NCBI GenBank assembly: GCA_963824385.1
Contig: CAWGPD010000001.1
Location: 64,001-128,000, forward strand
DNA: 64,000 nt
Source of the DNA: an uncultured Nitrososphaerota archaeon
Lineage (GTDB): Archaea; Thermoproteota; Nitrososphaeria; Nitrososphaerales; Nitrosopumilaceae
Direction of reading: 5' to 3'
The notes under the pieces are model-generated. The model saw only the letters and a program-made list of their open reading frames with translations. It was not told where the DNA came from and did no database searches. The position numbers were made by a program, and so were the translations under genes. Below, piece by piece: positions 56,301 to 64,000 of this stretch. Each line of letters opens with the position of its first letter. Position 1 is the stretch's first letter.

Positions 56301-56810
56301 CTACTTTCTCTCAAATTCCACTACTAGTTCTATCTTTCTAAGATCGTGTGCAATTGCAATTACCCTGTTTACATCTATTGGAAATTTTGCGGTCTTTTTT
56401 CCAGACACTATGACTTTGGTTTTTCTAAGACCACCCAAAGCCCAAACTTGGTTTATTGCAAGTATTTTGATTGGAAAGAATACATCTTCGATGAATTTCT
56501 TGTCATCAGAGTTTTGATGGACAAGCCAAATTTTTCCTGAAAATTCACCTTGAAGTATACGATAAAGTTCTCTACTTTGTCTAATAGTCATAATATCCTG
56601 ACTCCCAAGATAGATTACAAAATCACCGTTTGATTCACTGCATGAATTTAAGGTGAATTTTTCTATTTGTGGTATCTTTTGAGAAAGTTTTACAAGTTTT
56701 ATGGAGGCATTAACATCTGCCTTTGTTAGTACTCCATGATCTAATTTTGACTCACATTGAGGACACAGTATACCATTCATTGCATCAAAATTACAAATTG
56801 GTGTCCTCAT
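56301..56810 (-). CDS. NusA-like KH-domain protein with N-terminal Zn motif
   Basis: PICNFD...LCPQC, then the KH-like region typical of this archaeal family. Confidence 0.75.
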   Translation of the reverse strand: MRTPICNFDAMNGILCPQCESKLDHGVLTKADVNASIKLVKLSQKIPQIEKFTLNSCSESNGDFVIYLGSQDIMTIRQSRELYRILQGEFSGKIWLVHQNSDDKKFIEDVFFPIKILAINQVWALGGLRKTKVIVSGKKTAKFPIDVNRVIAIAHDLRKIELVVEFERK

Positions 56811-56852
56811 GGAAATCGATTTTTTGCTTACAAAACTGGAAGATAAACTATG

Positions 56853-56860
56853 CGAAATTA
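56853..56860. repeat. 8-bp target-site duplication CGAAATTA (left copy)
   Basis: Identical to 60673-60680 and directly abuts the terminal inverted repeat. Confidence 0.92.
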
Positions 56861-56910
56861 GGTTCTGTTCATTTGACGATTGATCTTCTCCGTGTTCAAA
56901 ATCGGTTGAT
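56861..56910 (+). repeat. Left terminal inverted repeat of element 1
   Basis: GGTTCTGTTCATTTGACGATTGATCTTCTCCGTGTTCAAAATCGGTTGAT, the exact reverse complement of 60623-60672. Confidence 0.95.
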
Positions 56911-56935
56911 GATTAAATAATTTGACACTGGTAAA

Positions 56936-57418
56936 TTAACATGGTACGGCATACTCTTCACCAGCCTCGAATAACCGAACTGGCGTATGCCTTGGATCCA
57001 ATCTTCTCACATTTTTATAGTTATGAAGAACCCCCCCATCACTTGTTACAATAATTACTTCAGGTTGATTTAATAAATTTAAAAAAGACAATTCACCAAC
57101 CTGACACTCAGGAATAAGTGGTAGTAAACCTATTTTGTTAGTTATCTCTTTCACTATTTGTTTGTCAATGGATGGTATACTCACTCTGCGAAGAACATTG
57201 GTAAGATGTTTAATTGCCAAGTTTACGCCCTTACTACTTATTTTTCTAGCATAATACAGTCTCATTACTAATTCAATCACTACTACTGGGGTAACGATGA
57301 ACATGCCCTCATTACTACTAATTGTATTTTTTAGCCACTCTCTTACATTACTATTTTTGTTAACAAAGTAGTCTTCCCATACTGTAGTGTCTGTTACATA
57401 GAGAGGGGAAAGACTCAA
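56936..57418 (-). CDS. PIN-domain (VapC-like) protein
   Basis: YVTDTTVW, TPVVVIEL, GE, IVTSD acidic PIN pattern. Confidence 0.75.
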   Translation of the reverse strand: MSLSPLYVTDTTVWEDYFVNKNSNVREWLKNTISSNEGMFIVTPVVVIELVMRLYYARKISSKGVNLAIKHLTNVLRRVSIPSIDKQIVKEITNKIGLLPLIPECQVGELSFLNLLNQPEVIIVTSDGGVLHNYKNVRRLDPRHTPVRLFEAGEEYAVPC

Positions 57419-57810
57419 TTCTCTGCTGAATCCAATATCTCATCAATCTTATCTAACGCTTTTACCGCATCTTCGCCTTCAAGTTTTTTCCCTATTACAA
57501 TCTGTTTTAGGTCTTCATCATATATGTCTGCAAATAATTCATCCCCTACTTTCCAATTGAGTTTATTGGTTAGATCGAATGGGAGTACTAATCCATTATT
57601 TTCATTAAGCATTACTTTTGGTTCAACATTAAAAAATGACATATTTTGGAAAGACTCTGGATAATTTAATTCAGCATAGTAAGGAGTTTTGTATACACCT
57701 TTAACTTCAGCTAATAGCCATATTTTTTCTTGTTTTCTCGGGATAACTTTGATTGGTTTTTGTTCCTTTGGAACAATATCATACCATTCATCTTCTTTTT
57801 GTTTACTCAT
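57415..57810 (-). CDS. Protein with AbrB/MazE-like domain (putative antitoxin)
   Basis: GLVLPFDLTNKLNWKVGDEL...QIVIGK; overlaps the PIN gene start. Confidence 0.6.
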   Translation of the reverse strand: MSKQKEDEWYDIVPKEQKPIKVIPRKQEKIWLLAEVKGVYKTPYYAELNYPESFQNMSFFNVEPKVMLNENNGLVLPFDLTNKLNWKVGDELFADIYDEDLKQIVIGKKLEGEDAVKALDKIDEILDSAEN

Positions 57811-58433
57811 TGTCCTTTCACCTTCTTTACATAAGATTCAGCCTTCTCTATTTGTTTTTCCATATTCTGAAGTTCTTTGATTAGTTTTTTTACTTCGGTT
57901 TTGGTGAGTTCAAAACTTACTGGTCGTTTGTCTCCTGCTTCAGTAATTTTAAAATTTATGTTACAACATGGATAAAGATATTCGTCAAAATGAGGTGGTG
58001 ATAATAATCTTACATCATAATCAAATGAACGAATGTCTAAAGTAGGAGTTGCAGAATGAAATTTGTAATCTATATCATGTAATATTCCTTCTTTTTCTAA
58101 TCTATCTGAAAGAGTTAGTAATCTATCAGCATCCTGTTTTGAAATTTTAAGACTACTTTCCAGTGTATTTTTATTTTTAACATAATGTAATAGAGTCTGA
58201 GTAGCATCCATTATTTCACCCAATATTGTGACTAGTTGTTTTGTCTCTAATCCTTGTATTTTGATTTTGTTAACTTCAGGTGCATGTGTGTACAGTCCTA
58301 CTCCCTCGTCTACAGGTTCAACTACAATTGTACAGTCAGACCATAATCGTACAAATGTATCTAAAACCTGATTAAATTGATCGGGAGTTAATTTGAATAA
58401 ATTGGGAAATCCAAAAGTATTTTGTTCAGACAT
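57807..58433 (-). CDS. COMMD-like protein (helical N-domain plus COMM-like C-domain)
   Basis: PTLDIRSFDYDVR...PCCNINFKI...VSFELTKTEVKKLIKELQNMEKQI resembles the COMM consensus; TATA-like TTTAAATA upstream of ATG 58433. Confidence 0.55.
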   Translation of the reverse strand: MSEQNTFGFPNLFKLTPDQFNQVLDTFVRLWSDCTIVVEPVDEGVGLYTHAPEVNKIKIQGLETKQLVTILGEIMDATQTLLHYVKNKNTLESSLKISKQDADRLLTLSDRLEKEGILHDIDYKFHSATPTLDIRSFDYDVRLLSPPHFDEYLYPCCNINFKITEAGDKRPVSFELTKTEVKKLIKELQNMEKQIEKAESYVKKVKGQ

Positions 58434-58476
58434 AGTATTATCCTGCAAAAAATTCTATTTAAACATAAGCAAGTAA

Positions 58477-58602
58477 CTATGATGTAGGTTTCCAGTATTC
58501 CGTAATTCTATGTCTACAATCATCACACCATAAATATTTGATTTGATAATCATAGTCAGCATCCATTCGGATTTTGCATGAGGGACATTCGTATGTAGTC
58601 AA
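58477..58602 (-). CDS. Zn-ribbon microprotein (41 aa)
   Basis: TTG start overlapping the transposase TGA; MTTYECPSCKIRMDADYDYQIKYLWCDDCRHRITEYWKPTS. Confidence 0.65.
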   Translation of the reverse strand: MTTYECPSCKIRMDADYDYQIKYLWCDDCRHRITEYWKPTS

Positions 58603-59729
58603 GATTCTCTTCTGCTGGCATTCTGTATCAAGGTAATCCACTTGTTATCTCCCTCAATCTTGATTCCTGCAACTTCGCTAGGAGTTTTTCCTTCTAATCC
58701 CATATGAGGTCTAATGTAGTTGTGATAGATTTGATAACCTGTGAGAATTGGTGTATTGTTTATTTTCAATCCTCTCATTACTTTCTCACGGTCACGAATC
58801 TCACCGTTTAGTCTTTCCATCATGTTGTTGTGTCTATCACCTTTGAGAGTTATATGAGATTCATGAACTACTCTTGGTAGTTCTCTTGTCCAATATTCCT
58901 TCAAAAATGCTTCTCGGTATGCAGGTAATCCATCAGTGATTAGTTTGGTTGGCTTCTTTTCTGCTATTGCTCTAGCCATTCTAAAGAGATTCTTTGCATC
59001 ATGATTGTTCTTTGTTTCTGCCACTTCTTGAGCAATCAAGAACCTTGTTTCATCATCCATCATTGCAAATAGATATTTTCGATTTCCTCGAATCTTGATG
59101 AATACTTCATCTGCTCTCCAAATGTCTCCTACTTGTGGTGTAATGTCATCTAGGTATTTTTCCATAAGATTTGTGTATTTTTTGATCCAGTTGTAAACAG
59201 TAGCATGAACTACATCAACACCAAGCAATTTTAGAGATTTTGTGACATTTCTCAGTGATTCTCCGCTAAAGTATAGTTGCATGGCGGTTGTAATTGCTCT
59301 AGGATTGTGCTTCATTCTCTCAAAGCCTATATTGAGACTGAAAGTTTTGTGGCAATCAGAGCAAACGAATCTCTGAATATCATAATTCTTGTTGTGTCTT
59401 ATTCCAAATTTCTTAATGTTGTTCGATTTGCAGAATAGACAGGAATCAATGTTTATTGGTTGAATTGTTACCTTGTTCTTCTGTATTACCTGTTCTCTGA
59501 TCTTGATACTAAGTTCTACGCCATGAATATGCTTACAACAAATATGTCTGAATGCGTAATCTTTACAATTACAAGTCCATCCTGCATCTGTAAATACTAC
59601 AGCATATTCGCCTTTAGTTGTTTGTGATTTTACTTTGTATTGGTTTGCGTTGATTCTGAAAATCTGTTGATTCGGATTCTGTGCAATCTGTTTTCCTTTT
59701 TCTTCACGTGGATTCGCTCTGTTTTCCAT
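58599..59729 (-). CDS. IS6-like DDE transposase with SWIM and Zn-ribbon domains (element 1)
   Basis: CNCKD...CKH (SWIM), CLFC...CSDC, HTH, WRADE / ITDG / MERLN catalytic triad, YNYIRPH. Confidence 0.93.
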   Translation of the reverse strand: MENRANPREEKGKQIAQNPNQQIFRINANQYKVKSQTTKGEYAVVFTDAGWTCNCKDYAFRHICCKHIHGVELSIKIREQVIQKNKVTIQPINIDSCLFCKSNNIKKFGIRHNKNYDIQRFVCSDCHKTFSLNIGFERMKHNPRAITTAMQLYFSGESLRNVTKSLKLLGVDVVHATVYNWIKKYTNLMEKYLDDITPQVGDIWRADEVFIKIRGNRKYLFAMMDDETRFLIAQEVAETKNNHDAKNLFRMARAIAEKKPTKLITDGLPAYREAFLKEYWTRELPRVVHESHITLKGDRHNNMMERLNGEIRDREKVMRGLKINNTPILTGYQIYHNYIRPHMGLEGKTPSEVAGIKIEGDNKWITLIQNASRRES

Positions 59730-59730
59730 G

Positions 59731-59787
59731 TATGTGTATTATACACATAACTATAAAAGTATTGTGTATAATGTGTATAATGCACAA
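59731..59787. promoter_or_regulatory. Palindromic operator(s) between the divergent transposase and RHH genes
   Basis: TATGTGTAT-T-ATACACATA (59731-49) plus repeated TGTGTATAA and TGTGTATAATGCACA. Confidence 0.65.
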
Positions 59788-59818
59788 ATGATAAATAGTT
59801 GATAGTAATAATTACAGC

Positions 59819-60046
59819 ATGGGAAGAATAGACATCATACTACCAGATGATTTAGAAGATAAATTGAAAATGGAGGCAGGAAAAAGATTAGGTGCAAAAA
59901 GAGGAGCATTTACTGAAGCAATCAAGGATGCAATTGGTCTATGGTTAGATCCAAAAACAATGGAATTGATGGAAAAATATACTGGCAAGTCATTAGATGC
60001 AGAAACTAAAGAAATTTTGAAGAAGTATCGGGGTAATGTTGATTGA
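59819..60046 (+). CDS. Ribbon-helix-helix regulator
   Basis: MGRIDIILPDDLEDKL...GAFTEAIKDAIGLWL RHH pattern. Confidence 0.8.
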   Translation: MGRIDIILPDDLEDKLKMEAGKRLGAKRGAFTEAIKDAIGLWLDPKTMELMEKYTGKSLDAETKEILKKYRGNVD

Positions 60047-60453
60047 TTATAGAGTATGATCCGAGAAAAGAGACAACCACTGTGAATGGACTCTGTGAAA
60101 AATGTGACAACAAATGGATCGTGAGTCGGGATAATAGTGTTTATCAACTTCCAATGGAATTAAAAGAAAAATGTCCGAAATGCGGTCATGTTAACATACT
60201 TTTCTATCCAGACGAAGAAATGAATAAACAAATGATGAATCAGAAATATGTCTTAGATTTACCCCTAAAATTTGAGAATGCAAAAAAGACAATTGAGAAG
60301 TTAAAAGAAGAGAGAGATGCCCTAAAGGTAAGAAATACCGAATTATTTGATGAAAATAAGATTCTAGTAAAAGCGATTGACATACTTACCGCCAAACTTG
60401 AAAAACTAAATATCAAATTGGACGGTGGAACTGAAAATCCACTTGCTAAATGA
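60043..60453 (+). CDS. Zn-ribbon plus coiled-coil protein
   Basis: CEKC...CPKCG followed by a heptad-rich C-terminus. Confidence 0.7.
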   Translation: MIIEYDPRKETTTVNGLCEKCDNKWIVSRDNSVYQLPMELKEKCPKCGHVNILFYPDEEMNKQMMNQKYVLDLPLKFENAKKTIEKLKEERDALKVRNTELFDENKILVKAIDILTAKLEKLNIKLDGGTENPLAK

Positions 60454-61514
60454 GTAGTCAAATGTCAAATACGATACTATGCCCTAAATGTGAGGCGTTG
60501 TTAATAAAGGAGGAATTTGAAACCCATGATTGTATTTCTAATTACAAATTTGATGGAAAATATCTATTAATTAGACGAAACGGAAAATGGCGTTCAATTT
60601 ACTTGCCATTATTATTCAGATTATCAACCGATTTTGAACACGGAGAAGATCAATCGTCAAATGAACAGAACCCGAAATTAGGTTCTGTTGCGATCACGGG
60701 TGATAGACGTTTGACACAAAAATTTTCTGCCTGTTACAGTCGGGTGATGGATCACCCTCGATCATTAAAAGCAAAAATAACCGCATGGTTCAAAGTTTTC
60801 ATGGCACGTTCAATCAAGATATACCGTTTTTTCACAGCAAAAAAATCCTCTGAAATATACGATATTCTAAAAGCAAGAAAAACTTCACAGAGCGTTAATA
60901 CTTATCCTGAAATCGCTACGATACAAAATAATCCCGATAGTGTTAGTGGTTCATTTCACATAAGAAAAAAAGTATTAGGATCTTGGGAAATTCTTTTCTA
61001 CGAATTTACTATAAAAACAAAAAAGGCTACACTTTTTCTACAAGGTAAAACTGTGGGAAGATCAGATGCTAATGAATTTCTTGCTGAATTAATTGAAAAT
61101 GGAACTTCCAGATATGATGTGATAAAAGAATATGAGTTAACCAATGGTCAGATGCTACAAATTTTCAATAATGTTACAAAACAATATGCAGATAACATCA
61201 TTATGCGATTGAAAGTTCTTTTTAGTCCTCTAAGCGGATATAAATATAAAGATAAAGAGGTTTATGGCGAGTTATCTTTTCAGTTTATTGGAAATAAATG
61301 TGCAAGCAAACATAATGATTTTAGTAATTTTTTAGAAAACAGTATGGAAGTAGAACTGACGTTTGGACTTCTTAAATGTGCAGGATTGGCAAAGGAACTG
61401 AGAAATACACATATTAAATTAATAGCCAAATCTGATTGCAGTTTTAGAATGTATGTGGAAGTTCCACATGACGATTGGATTACTTTTGTTGAAAAGGTCT
61501 TGAATGTGATATGA
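60450..61514 (+). CDS. Chimeric ORF: element-1 Zn-finger gene reading through TIR/TSD/TIR into an element-2 cargo gene (own start probably 60747 or 60801)
   Basis: CPKC...HDC N-terminus; residues STDFEHGEDQSSNEQNPKLGSV are encoded by the TIR-TSD-TIR junction. Confidence 0.6.
   Translation: MSSQMSNTILCPKCEALLIKEEFETHDCISNYKFDGKYLLIRRNGKWRSIYLPLLFRLSTDFEHGEDQSSNEQNPKLGSVAITGDRRLTQKFSACYSRVMDHPRSLKAKITAWFKVFMARSIKIYRFFTAKKSSEIYDILKARKTSQSVNTYPEIATIQNNPDSVSGSFHIRKKVLGSWEILFYEFTIKTKKATLFLQGKTVGRSDANEFLAELIENGTSRYDVIKEYELTNGQMLQIFNNVTKQYADNIIMRLKVLFSPLSGYKYKDKEVYGELSFQFIGNKCASKHNDFSNFLENSMEVELTFGLLKCAGLAKELRNTHIKLIAKSDCSFRMYVEVPHDDWITFVEKVLNVI
60623..60672 (-). repeat. Right terminal inverted repeat of element 1
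   Basis: Exact reverse complement of 56861-56910. Confidence 0.95.
60673..60680. repeat. 8-bp target-site duplication CGAAATTA (right copy; the only spacer between elements 1 and 2)
   Basis: Identical to 56853-56860. Confidence 0.92.
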
Positions 61515-61524
61515 CAGGGAATGA

Positions 61525-62058
61525 ATGATGAATGAAACCGAAACTTATTATCAACTGTTTGGGAATACAATTACCTTGTCATTAGCAGATCTTCTTGGTT
61601 ATATCGGAATAGGTGTTTCCGTTGGAGTTGGAGTATTATTTGCATCATTAGATTGGAGAAGGCGTGTTACAACCGATAAAAATCATAAAAAAATAATTTG
61701 TTATCACATGAATGAACTTGAAACAATTTTTGCCCACATTATGGTTGATTTCAACAAATTGGAAGAAGATGAAGATGGAGTACCAGAACGTTTGAATCAT
61801 TTTTTAATTGGAAAATATAGACATATTGAGTATTTGATTGATAACATAAAATTGAATAAAATTCAATGTTCAAAATTATCTGATGATGAAGAAAAAGATA
61901 TAGAAAATACATTGAAAATTTCTCAGTGGTTATTGGAAGAATACTGTCCACAGGATGTACTTGAAGCAAGTCGAGTGAGTCTTTGGCGAGAGTACAATCC
62001 AAAACTTAAAGAAAATGCTGAAACATTGGCAAACTCAGTAAAACATTTTGCTAACTAA
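61525..62058 (+). CDS. Hypothetical membrane-anchored helical protein (cargo)
   Basis: One N-terminal TM helix (LLGYIGIGVSVGVGVLFA) followed by an alpha-helical domain. Confidence 0.7.
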   Translation: MMNETETYYQLFGNTITLSLADLLGYIGIGVSVGVGVLFASLDWRRRVTTDKNHKKIICYHMNELETIFAHIMVDFNKLEEDEDGVPERLNHFLIGKYRHIEYLIDNIKLNKIQCSKLSDDEEKDIENTLKISQWLLEEYCPQDVLEASRVSLWREYNPKLKENAETLANSVKHFAN

Positions 62059-62060
62059 TA

Positions 62061-62252
62061 TCATTTCGATTTACTATCTTTGTGACTAGTAACTTCTATT
62101 TTGTTTCCCCTAATGATGAATTTTATCATATCGGGATTTCCAAGAAAATCCATTATAGGTTTTGGCAGATAACTTTGCCATCCCCTAGTTTCATGATATG
62201 AAACATTGACAGGAAATTCTTTTTCACCTTTTTTCCATTTAGGCACACTCAT
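62061..62252 (-). CDS. AbrB-like small DNA-binding protein
   Basis: QSYLPKPIMDFLG...IKFIIRGNKIEV swapped-hairpin pattern; divergent from the transposase. Confidence 0.7.
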   Translation of the reverse strand: MSVPKWKKGEKEFPVNVSYHETRGWQSYLPKPIMDFLGNPDMIKFIIRGNKIEVTSHKDSKSK

Positions 62253-62278
62253 AATTCAGCAAACTAATATTTATACAT

Positions 62279-62321
62279 TCCACGTGGATAATCATAATAT
62301 TAATATATCCACGTGGATATA
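62279..62321. promoter_or_regulatory. Twin palindromic operators between the AbrB-like gene and the transposase
   Basis: TCCACGTGGA (62279-88) and the perfect 18-bp TATATCCACGTGGATATA (62304-21). Confidence 0.7.
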
Positions 62322-62328
62322 CTATAAC

Positions 62329-63444
62329 ATGCAAAATTCCGATTCAAGAAAAGAAAATGGAAAAAAACTTGCCGAATCAAACAATCATGTTAAGAGAATT
62401 GATGAACACCATTACAAAGTAAAATCACAGTCAGGAAATGGCGAATATGATGTAGTTTCTACGGAATCTGGCTTAAACTGCTCATGCCCAGATCATATAT
62501 TTCGAAAGATATGTTGTAAGCACATTCACGCTGTTGAATTTAGTAAAAAGATTAGAGAGCATGTAAAAAATCATGTTACTGTTCAACCAATCACAGTTCA
62601 TTCATGCCAATTCTGTAAATCAGATAACATAGTCAAGAACGCTGTTAGACACAACAAGTATGGAGATCTTCAGAGGTACCTATGCAAGTCCTGTAACAAA
62701 CGATTCTCAATCAATCTAGGTTTTGAAAGAATGAAGGCTAGTCCAAAGACCATCACAAGTGCCATGCAGTTGTACTTTACAGGAGAATCGTTAAGAAACG
62801 TACAGAAATTCCTAAACCTTCAAGGCATTAACGTTAATCATGTTACAATTTACAGATGGATTGACAAGTATGTAGGTTTGATGAAGAAATACCTTGAACA
62901 AATGACACCGCAAGTTTCTGATACTTGGAGAGCAGATGAGGTTTTCATAAAAGTAAGTGGCAATCTCAAATACCTTTTTGCCATGATGGATGATGAAACT
63001 AGATTCCTAATTGCTCAAGAGGTAGCAGATTCAAAGAATAACCATGATGCTAGAAACCTATTCAGAAAGTCAAATGAGGTAGCAGGAAAGAAACCAACTA
63101 AACTAATCACCGATGGATTACCTGCATACAGAAATGCATTTTTAAAAGAATATTGGACAAGGAAATCGCCTAGAATTGAACATGAATCTCATATTACTCT
63201 CAAAGGTGATAGGAATAACAACAAGATGGAGAGGTTAAACGGAGAGATTCGGGATAGGGAAAAGACCATGAGGGGATTGAAGAAATCAGATACGCCAGTC
63301 CTTACAGGTTATCAGATCTATCATAACTACCTTAGACCTCATATGAGCTTGGATGGTAGTACACCATCAGAAATGGCAGGAATTAAAATTGAAGGCGATA
63401 ACAAATGGATTACGCTAATTCAGAATGCAAAGATAACTCAGTAA
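62329..63444 (+). CDS. IS6-like DDE transposase with SWIM and Zn-ribbon domains (element 2)
   Basis: CSCPD...CKH, CQFC...CKSC, WRADE / ITDG / MERLN; a diverged paralogue of 58599-59729. Confidence 0.93.
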   Translation: MQNSDSRKENGKKLAESNNHVKRIDEHHYKVKSQSGNGEYDVVSTESGLNCSCPDHIFRKICCKHIHAVEFSKKIREHVKNHVTVQPITVHSCQFCKSDNIVKNAVRHNKYGDLQRYLCKSCNKRFSINLGFERMKASPKTITSAMQLYFTGESLRNVQKFLNLQGINVNHVTIYRWIDKYVGLMKKYLEQMTPQVSDTWRADEVFIKVSGNLKYLFAMMDDETRFLIAQEVADSKNNHDARNLFRKSNEVAGKKPTKLITDGLPAYRNAFLKEYWTRKSPRIEHESHITLKGDRNNNKMERLNGEIRDREKTMRGLKKSDTPVLTGYQIYHNYLRPHMSLDGSTPSEMAGIKIEGDNKWITLIQNAKITQ

Positions 63445-63640
63445 CTTTTTTTGTTACACAATCTGGACATAGAATCAACCCTGCATTGTTAGTAAGAATA
63501 CTCATTGTTGAACAATATTCTTTGAAGAATTTTTTATTTTCACCAGACCAAACATCTTGAAAGAAAAAAATACAACACAGTGGAAATTTTTCTTCAACGC
63601 CAGCATACAAATATCCATGACCGATCTTTTCTTTAGGCAT
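63410..63640 (-). CDS. Small Cys-containing hypothetical protein (cargo)
   Basis: FPLCCIFFF and LCPDC motifs. Confidence 0.55.
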   Translation of the reverse strand: MPKEKIGHGYLYAGVEEKFPLCCIFFFQDVWSGENKKFFKEYCSTMSILTNNAGLILCPDCVTKKVTELSLHSELA

Positions 63641-63721
63641 AATTATTTAGATTTTAAACGTAATAGAGATCTAAAAGTTTTGTTGTTTTTAATTTGATCT
63701 TTTTATTAAATAAGATGAATC

Positions 63722-63929
63722 ATGAGTCAAGTTTATACGAATCAGGCTCACTGTAATACTAGATTTGCGTCACGAATGTCCAAAATGTCTTAGAACTTTT
63801 GCAACAGATGATACTACACTAGAAAAATTTGTTGGTTTTCGGCTATTTCGTGGAATAAAATATGTGCAATCTTGGTGTAGAAAATGTAGAAAAGAAGATC
63901 TACAGGAAAAACGTAAAAATCAAAAGTAA
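63722..63929 (+). CDS. Zn-finger microprotein (cargo; start uncertain, possible frameshift at ~63765)
   Basis: HECPKC...GFRLFRGIKYVQSWCRKCR to TAA 63929. Confidence 0.5.
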
Positions 63930-64000
63930 TGAATTGGGTAAATGATGTTACAAGATTAAGGCATGACATATTCATCACTTTCATAGAATGCAAAATATCT

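Follow-up and report, generated by a model that had tools for sequence, protein, structure and literature searches.

IS6-type cargo transposons stacked upstream of a NusA-like gene in a Nitrososphaerota archaeon, and a probable TATA-offset rule for their insertion

How do two different transposons come to lie end to end upstream of a core gene, with nothing between them except an 8-bp target duplication? The question is raised by a 64,000-nucleotide (nt) stretch of DNA from an uncultured Nitrososphaerota archaeon (assembly GCA_963824385.1, contig CAWGPD010000001.1, here C1). This stretch, which we call the window, covers C1:64001-128000 of a 1.68-Mb, five-contig assembly (G000). An earlier note on the window had described two IS6-like elements, here E1 and E2, stacked at one site and parted only by a duplicated 8-mer, and all of its letters and positions were confirmed. 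We consider it probable (roughly 0.65) that such elements integrate in a fixed register upstream of a TATA box, and that repeated insertion at that place builds a polar array of autonomous cargo units.

We extended the reading rightwards on C1 and found that the array runs CGAAATTA, E1, CGAAATTA, E2, a third CGAAATTA and then a truncated element, E3. The note's expectation of a matching right end for E2, a further 8-mer and another unit past the window was thus borne out. The features of the array, in window positions unless marked C1, are these:

56301..56810, minus strand: NusA-like core gene of 169 aa; the array sits upstream of its promoter
56842..56847, minus strand: TATA-like hexamer TTTATC as read from the sequence, 5 nt away from the 8-mer and 37 nt ahead of the ATG of the gene
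56853..56860, no strand: first copy of CGAAATTA, the promoter-proximal target duplication
56861..60672, no strand: E1, IS6-type cargo transposon of 3812 bp with inverted repeats and identical flanking 8-mers
56861..56913, plus strand: left terminal inverted repeat of E1 (GGTTCTGTTCATTTGACG...), 53 nt
58599..59729, minus strand: E1 transposase, 376 aa, with a SWIM zinc finger, a second C4 zinc finger and an IS6-type DDE core
60620..60672, minus strand: right terminal inverted repeat of E1, 53 nt
60673..60680, no strand: second copy of CGAAATTA, the sole DNA between E1 and E2
60681..64000 and on for 554 bp beyond the window to C1:128554, no strand: E2, 3874 bp in total, starting GGTTCTGTTG...
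60681..60705, plus strand: left terminal inverted repeat of E2, 25 nt the same as the right end and about 85 nt at 78%
62329..63444, plus strand: E2 transposase, 371 aa, with the same domains as that of E1
C1:128555-128562: third copy of CGAAATTA, directly after the right end of E2
from C1:128563: E3 remnant of about 170 bp, consisting of one end (GGTTCTGTGTAATC...) and about 35 last transposase codons

Downstream of E3, about 445 bp precede an ABC-type ATPase gene. The flanking gene aligns over its full length with the NCBIfam model PRK06418 ('NusA-like') at 91.6 bits, under the cut-off of 175, and has orthologues in 30 of the 40 relatives searched. The terminal arms of E1 are 98% complementary over 53 nt. 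The ends of E1 and E2 have only their first 9 nt in common and the transposases are diverged (68.7% protein identity) and oppositely oriented, again as the note had it. Exact copies of GGTTCTGTT occur only three times in the window, at 56861 (+), 60664-60672 (-) and 60681 (+). The 8-mer itself is not rare: we counted four copies of CGAAATTA in the window against 2.3 expected, and 51 in the genome with only three at the array, whose ends are the only such ends in the genome flanked by it. The non-random part is therefore the arrangement, and the 8-mer was rejected as a sequence-specific target on these counts and on its variation between sites. We also observed a 354-aa open reading frame (ORF; 60450-61514, +) that begins in E1, crosses its right end and the 8-mer, and enters the first gene of E2; it is a fusion made by the junction, and the native E2 gene likely starts at the ATG at 60747.

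We assign E1, E2 and the E3 remnant to an archaeal branch of the IS6 family whose members have a zinc-finger and DDE transposase and reach 2-7 kb through their passenger genes. Both transposases passed the NCBIfam transpos_IS6 model (NF033587; E1 128 bits, E2 129.4 bits, cut-off 125) and matched Pfam DDE_Tnp_IS240 (PF13610) with E=2-3e-18 (E1 E=3e-18), and neither matched a Mutator or IS256 model at cut-off (IS256, 25.5 bits against 150). The SWIM domain of the E1 transposase scored 21.5 bits against a cut-off of 19.6. In an alignment of 20 relatives the residues D203, D262 and E306 were invariant, as were C51, C53, C63 and H65 of the SWIM finger and C93, C96, C119 and C122 of the second finger. 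Element ends begin GGTTCTGT, and GGTTCTGTT stands at both ends of E1, E2 and related elements, with GG tips and a cTGTt motif. The 8-bp duplications are perfect at E1, E2 and 30 of 31 other distinct elements (one mismatch in L138); the 47 loci of the wider scan described below have perfect ones too, which the script demanded. GG tips, the cTGTt motif and 8-bp duplications mark the IS6/IS26 family (PMC7986276). The small, single-gene build typical of IS6 was not found, in that these elements carry several passenger ORFs and measure 1.3-7.5 kb elsewhere. Repeated or palindromic motifs precede both transposase genes, CCACGTGGATA twice at 62265-62302 in E2 and TGTGTATAAT-like repeats at 59728-59800 in E1, and may be operator or promoter elements.

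Intramolecular replicative inversion by IS6 elements leaves inverted copies of the 8-mer around the element (PMC7986276, in the part of the review available). In G052 (L084, G052:C134, 2295-5347) one element is flanked by the reverse-complementary 8-mers CGATTAAA and TTTAATCG, and in G096 (L129/L130, G096:C1) the reverse-complementary 8-mers CGGTCAAA and TTTGACCG lie at junctions 23.6 kb apart. The G096 elements are of a different, repeat-rich type, and the transposase query found none within 8 kb of them. To judge from these letters, the pattern is the one expected from such an inversion, and the G052 element gives the only hint of a replicative cointegrate pathway.

Stacking is not confined to the window. 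We searched for facing ends with the pattern ACAGMRCC, 0-30 nt, GGYKCTGT, using the reversed pattern as a control. Across 63 genomes of the genus the spacer was exactly 8 nt in 21 of 23 matches (control, 7 matches), and across 401 genomes of the family in 38 of 69 (control, 29 matches), or 32 of 63 without six matches from unpublished genomes (two each in G011 and G070, one each in G012 and G310). The remaining 31 family matches were spread over 16 other spacer lengths, with at most four at each, and several were orthologous coding sequence. Arrays of three or four units with one common 8-mer were present in G015 (CAAAAGCA), G368 (TGTTTCGA), G389 (TGTTTGGG) and others. Among 21 distinct complete elements at loci retrieved through a transposase match, nine abut another end at 8 nt, ten are solo and two are unclear. 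Related elements elsewhere are thus often stacked at the 8-nt spacer, as the idea of tandem arrays had anticipated.

Different elements also occupy the same positions in different genomes. At the NusA-like site, 12 of 20 genomes have an element end directly after ...GATAAACTATG plus 8 nt (10 of 18 when the unpublished G012 and G019 are set aside), with at least nine different end types and with 8-mers that are species-specific (CGAAATTA, CGAAAGTA, CGAAATCA, CGAAAATA and others). Four genomes (G017, G009, G021 and G010) have no element end there; G015 has a transposase fragment right after the 8-mer, G020 has another insert, and the G004 contig stops inside the 8-mer. Most relatives hold decayed remnants only. 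At a second site, before radA, at least 11 genomes of four genera have the flank-proximal 8-mer 40 nt ahead of the ATG (G015, G010, G052, G071, G060, G006, G068, G368, G389, G130 and G151; the G052 contig ends 14 nt into the flank, and its site was read from the flank sequence alone). G006 and G068 carry different solo elements between the same radA flanks, and G059 is uninserted (...CCAGTGTA / TTCAATCA / ATATC TTTATTAGG). At a third site (... / TCTGAAAG / ATGGA TTTAAATAC), G042, G078 and G008 carry three different elements and G000 carries none; the G042 and G078 elements can be aligned in the transposase gene alone (75% identity), and their flanks are 82-83% identical. The element-free site with a single 8-mer that the earlier note suggested seeking in related genomes is found in G017, in G059 (radA) and, for the third site, in G000.

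Two side observations concern the radA site. In G000 it holds a degenerate old end without an intact element (C3, about 240480-240562; ..GGTAAAAGAATCC / TACATCCA / TAAAC TTATTAGG), unlike E1 and E2, which look intact. In G068, a solo element at radA (L108, C155) and a separate multi-element array (L086, C198) have the same 8-mer, CTCAAACA, which suggests strain variants collapsed into one bin.

What these positions have in common is their distance from a TATA-like hexamer. The window site reads TAATTTCG-CATAG-TTTATC before the NusA-like gene, and at all three recurrent sites such a hexamer begins 5 nt past the 8-mer, on the side of the gene that reads away from the array. We defined a strict motif as TTTA, TTAA or TTAT at offset 5 or 6 from the duplicated 8 bp. 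In a first set, 8 of 14 independent sites fitted (6 of 12 once the unpublished G011 and G019 are left out), against a background of 0.068 for positions drawn at random from the genome and 0.108 for those outside long ORFs. For a second set we scanned one genome per species and kept 80 of at least 623 relatives, in 75 distinct loci; the record titles name Nitrosotalea, Nitrosopumilus, Nitrososphaera, Nitrosocosmicus, Bathyarchaeia, Methanoperedens and Asgard-type lineages. To be called, an element had to have GG ends, 12 or more matches among 16 terminal bases, and a duplication of 8 bp free of mismatches. From the 47 loci that yielded one, we removed 15 that repeated earlier sites, one false detection and one element bordered by an end on each side, leaving 30 new sites. 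In this prospective test, which drew on Bathyarchaeia, Nitrososphaerales, Asgard-labelled and other records, 20 of the 30 sites fitted, against 5.5% of positions outside elements in the same loci (1731 of 31294; binomial P about 1e-18).

Of 57 flanks, 14 have TTTA starting at offset 5, and no other offset between 0 and 20 has it in more than three; typical flanks are CATAG TTTATATG, TAATG TTTATAAG, TAATA TTTATATA and AAAAG TTTATATA. The motif is mostly one-sided, and the elements lie in either orientation. In distant lineages, stacks with one native flank (L166, L173 and L181) have the TATA box on that flank. In G000, TTTAWW peaks 28-32 nt upstream of first ATGs, so the motif is probably the usual promoter element there. 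We also noted transposase relatives (60-63% identical) with archaeal-type TATA flanks in two bacteria-labelled bins (L156 and L189; Limnocylindrales and Pirellulales). These are probably mis-binned archaeal contigs; transfers are less likely.

Fixed-register integration would work as follows. An element would integrate where the eight bases to be duplicated end 5 bp, or in some cases 6, ahead of a TATA box. Duplication would keep one copy of the 8-mer at the untouched promoter, and the 13 bp before the TATA box would be unaltered by the insertion, so that the promoter-side 8-mer would stay a full target. Later elements, often of other types, would enter there again and displace earlier ones from the promoter. 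The predicted order is promoter, 8-mer, newest element, 8-mer, older element, 8-mer, oldest element, with the displaced elements decaying. That new insertions enter at the promoter-proximal 8-mer is what we infer from this scheme.

Two kinds of data bear on the order of units. In all nine informative arrays (G000, L083, L085, L090, L131, L132, L136, L137 and L141), units whose transposase is full-length lie nearest the promoter, and the distal place is taken by a truncated remnant; the nine are not fully independent, as some radA arrays may have an old remnant in common, and six further arrays were uninformative owing to contig ends or an unassigned promoter side. The distal remnants nearly always consist of one end and only the last 24-105 transposase codons (C1:128563-128730; L083 7187-8176; L085 6870-6986; L131 11851-11958; L132 12591-12803; and others). 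The population data come from Logan contigs, which break at repeats, so that uncovered stretches are uninformative. In a sample from another study (X3), a 44-nt contig runs from the promoter flank and 8-mer into the part of E3 just after GGTTCTGT, at a depth of 3.9 compared with 5.9 for E1 and 9.96 for the flank, and in X4 a contig links the promoter flank to the E2 end. Genomes without E1, or without E1 and E2, therefore coexist with the form in the window, and these variants fit an insertion order of E3, then E2, then E1.

Several points weigh against fixed-register integration upstream of a TATA box as the source of the arrays. The motif was chosen after the first set had been viewed, which leaves only the second set as a fair test, and that census is limited to elements meeting our calling criteria, with 28 of the 75 loci, and several of the earlier ones, yielding none. 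The strict motif was missed at 10 of the 30 test sites and 6 of the 14 first-set sites; many of these have other A/T-rich hexamers in its place, and some (L102, L138 and L215) have none. The hexamers are putative TATA boxes, and the regions putative promoters, by their sequence and their distance to the ATG. Polarity was rejected as a discriminator between the TATA rule and targeting of resident ends, since either would leave a one-ended remnant distal. The population variants do not prove the insertion order, given that unit loss by recombination between 16-17-nt direct repeats fits equally well. All three recurrent sites, uninserted copies included, have degenerate end-like remnants at the distal side, as would be expected if an incoming complex read the resident GGTTCTGT tip and duplicated exactly the 8 bp outside it, in the manner of IS30. 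Such end-directed insertion agrees with a spacer that always equals the duplication length of 8 nt and with terminal 8-9 nt common to all subtypes, and IS30 itself, in the available text, has dual specificity for hot spots and its own ends (PMC9333248). However, it leaves unexplained the TATA offset of first insertions, including solos without an end-like neighbour (L098, L110 and many others), and the different elements found at one position where the sole neighbour is a remnant with a mutated tip (TACACTGG...); moreover, the TATA rule by itself already predicts stacking. We regard end-directed insertion, the main rival, as an unlikely primary cause, and a resident end may still assist later insertions. 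The earlier note had left the choice between site-specific and end-directed insertion; the site-specific half, with its register 5 bp upstream of a TATA box, fits best, and the end-directed half survives as a possible helper.

Shared position could instead reflect descent, with one ancestral insertion per site, vertical inheritance, and local decay and rearrangement. The old remnants in common at the NusA-like and radA sites are compatible with this, and related genomes are not independent samples. Yet 8-mers are identical within an array and differ between species, the promoter-adjacent elements vary by species in type, cargo and orientation, and unrelated sites in distant phyla have the same TATA offset, which makes descent a very improbable account. 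Still harder to credit is an assembly artefact or the local tandem duplication of a single element. The assembly is metagenome-derived and Logan contigs break at the repeated junction, but E1 and E2 differ in their ends past 9 nt, their cargo and their transposases, and the nearest relative of E2 (85% identical) lies in another genome. The same architecture appears in many independent assemblies, including single-contig genomes. For the junction at 60660-60700, which the note had singled out for support by reads, a Logan contig from another sample (X2, 60643-61014) spans the last 30 nt of E1, the 8-mer and the start of E2.

Compared with known IS6/IS26 elements, those described here are alike in the DDE transposase that passes the IS6 model, the GG/cTGTt tips and the 8-bp duplication. 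They differ in being larger, with multiple passengers, a SWIM and a second zinc finger, repeats of up to 53 nt, a precise target rule and stacking. The available part of the IS6 review describes elements of 0.7-0.9 kb with repeats of 15-20 bp, one member with a passenger gene and zinc-finger extensions in Clostridia only, and it lists no Nitrososphaerota (PMC7986276). The analogy to targeted conservative insertion by IS26, which the note had drawn, was abandoned: that mode leaves no duplication, whereas each unit here has its own end pair and its own 8-bp duplication. The nearest concept is provided by the Mutator-like TnGBS, ISLre2 and ISKra4 elements, which according to the text available insert 15-17 bp upstream of the -35 box of sigma-A promoters, mostly in one orientation (PMC3942029). 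They too are DDE transposons that keep a set distance from a core promoter element when they integrate upstream of it, which spares genes and promoter; the elements here are of IS6 type, in archaeal hosts, 5 bp from a putative TATA box, in either orientation and in arrays. IS30 likewise forms facing ends whose spacer matches the length of the duplication (2 bp for IS30, 8 bp here), and its junctions, as far as the available text goes, unite ends of a single element type and are reactive intermediates of transposition (PMC9333248). By contrast, the junctions described here join different neighbouring elements, each with its own duplication, and persist in genomes.

Tandem accumulation at a regenerated target has a precedent in the same group of organisms. 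Thaumarchaeota casposons and tyrosine-recombinase elements form tandem arrays at a reused site with a regenerated target (PMC6563490, in the part available). They differ in using Cas1-type or tyrosine integrases and in targeting tRNA genes or ef-2, and the same text treats insertion sequences as elements of one or two genes and, in its passages on tandem elements and arrays, describes no stacking of them; IS6 occurs in it only within longer names such as IS605 and IS630 (PMC6563490). In the literature outside subscription journals and supplements, we found no report of an IS6-type or archaeal transposon that targets TATA boxes, of IS6 stacking or of any prokaryotic transposon that reads a TATA box. 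The locus had also been called integron/CRISPR-like. Integron cassette and CRISPR arrays grow in a polar manner beside a fixed anchor, and as an analogy for such growth the term is apt. For the machinery it is not: the units here are bounded by transposon ends and each has its own transposase, with no attC or Cas machinery, and we found no integrase among the window ORFs (ORF list, Pfam and NCBIfam).

A transposase might find the TATA box through its zinc fingers on the DNA or through TBP and TFB. Recognition is one-sided despite near-identical element ends, which hints at an asymmetric host partner. Ty3 integrates at Pol III promoters through promoter-bound factors, its integrase using TFIIIB. 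By analogy, the pre-initiation complex of archaea, in which TBP and TFB sit on the TATA box and BRE, might tether the transposase, and integration would then fall at the upstream edge of the complex, a tentative idea that we hold to be doubtful at present.

The passenger genes of E1 and E2 are the following:

56936..57418, minus strand: E1, 160-aa protein with a weak VapC/PIN match
57415-57810: E1, 131-aa ORF upstream of the 160-aa ORF
57807..58448, minus strand: E1, 213-aa protein with only a short COMM-domain match, E=3e-6
59819..60453, plus strand: E1, 75-aa and 136-aa ORFs, the latter with a zinc ribbon and a coiled coil
60747..62058, plus strand: E2, 255-aa and 177-aa ORFs

The 160-aa protein matched an NCBIfam VapC model at E=6e-4, far under the cut-off, and had no match in Pfam or PADLOC; its ORF overlaps the 131-aa ORF by 4 nt in a toxin-antitoxin-like layout. 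The 75-aa and 136-aa ORFs of E1 matched no family at cut-off, and the 255-aa and 177-aa ORFs of E2 none at all, in Pfam, NCBIfam or PADLOC. Across 11 cargo ORFs, the PADLOC defence-system library gave no match at its scale. We scanned 53 of 98 ORFs of at least 90 aa in 27 other elements, excluding transposase-sized ORFs and those that overlap longer ones, and nine of the 53 matched Pfam. The cargo matches include an MmeI/Eco57I-like enzyme, an N6/N4 methylase, a Dam methylase with a separate HNH-domain protein in one element, a RelA/SpoT-like protein, two proteasome-like proteins, a nested IS110 and a zinc-ribbon protein (below Pfam cut-offs). An IS110-family transposase gene (L084 8702-9883) is nested in the cargo of an IS6-type element of the G052 radA array, and a RelA/SpoT-like ORF (L084 7617-8888) lies on the opposite strand to it with an overlap of about 190 nt.

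The IS6 family is best known for the spread of antibiotic resistance, and these elements widen it to a cargo-carrying, site-specific clade in several archaeal phyla. Archaeal promoters resemble eukaryotic Pol II promoters. If the TATA-offset rule holds, it would offer a testable case of safe-site targeting in archaea and would explain why ammonia oxidisers and other archaea have islands of accessory genes next to core genes. It might also serve as a tool to insert DNA ahead of archaeal promoters and leave them intact. Should tethering by the pre-initiation complex prove true, the promoters of radA and the NusA-like gene would anchor polar, integron-like platforms at which lineages from Nitrososphaeria to Bathyarchaeia and Asgard-labelled archaea gather restriction-modification, toxin-like and other genes.

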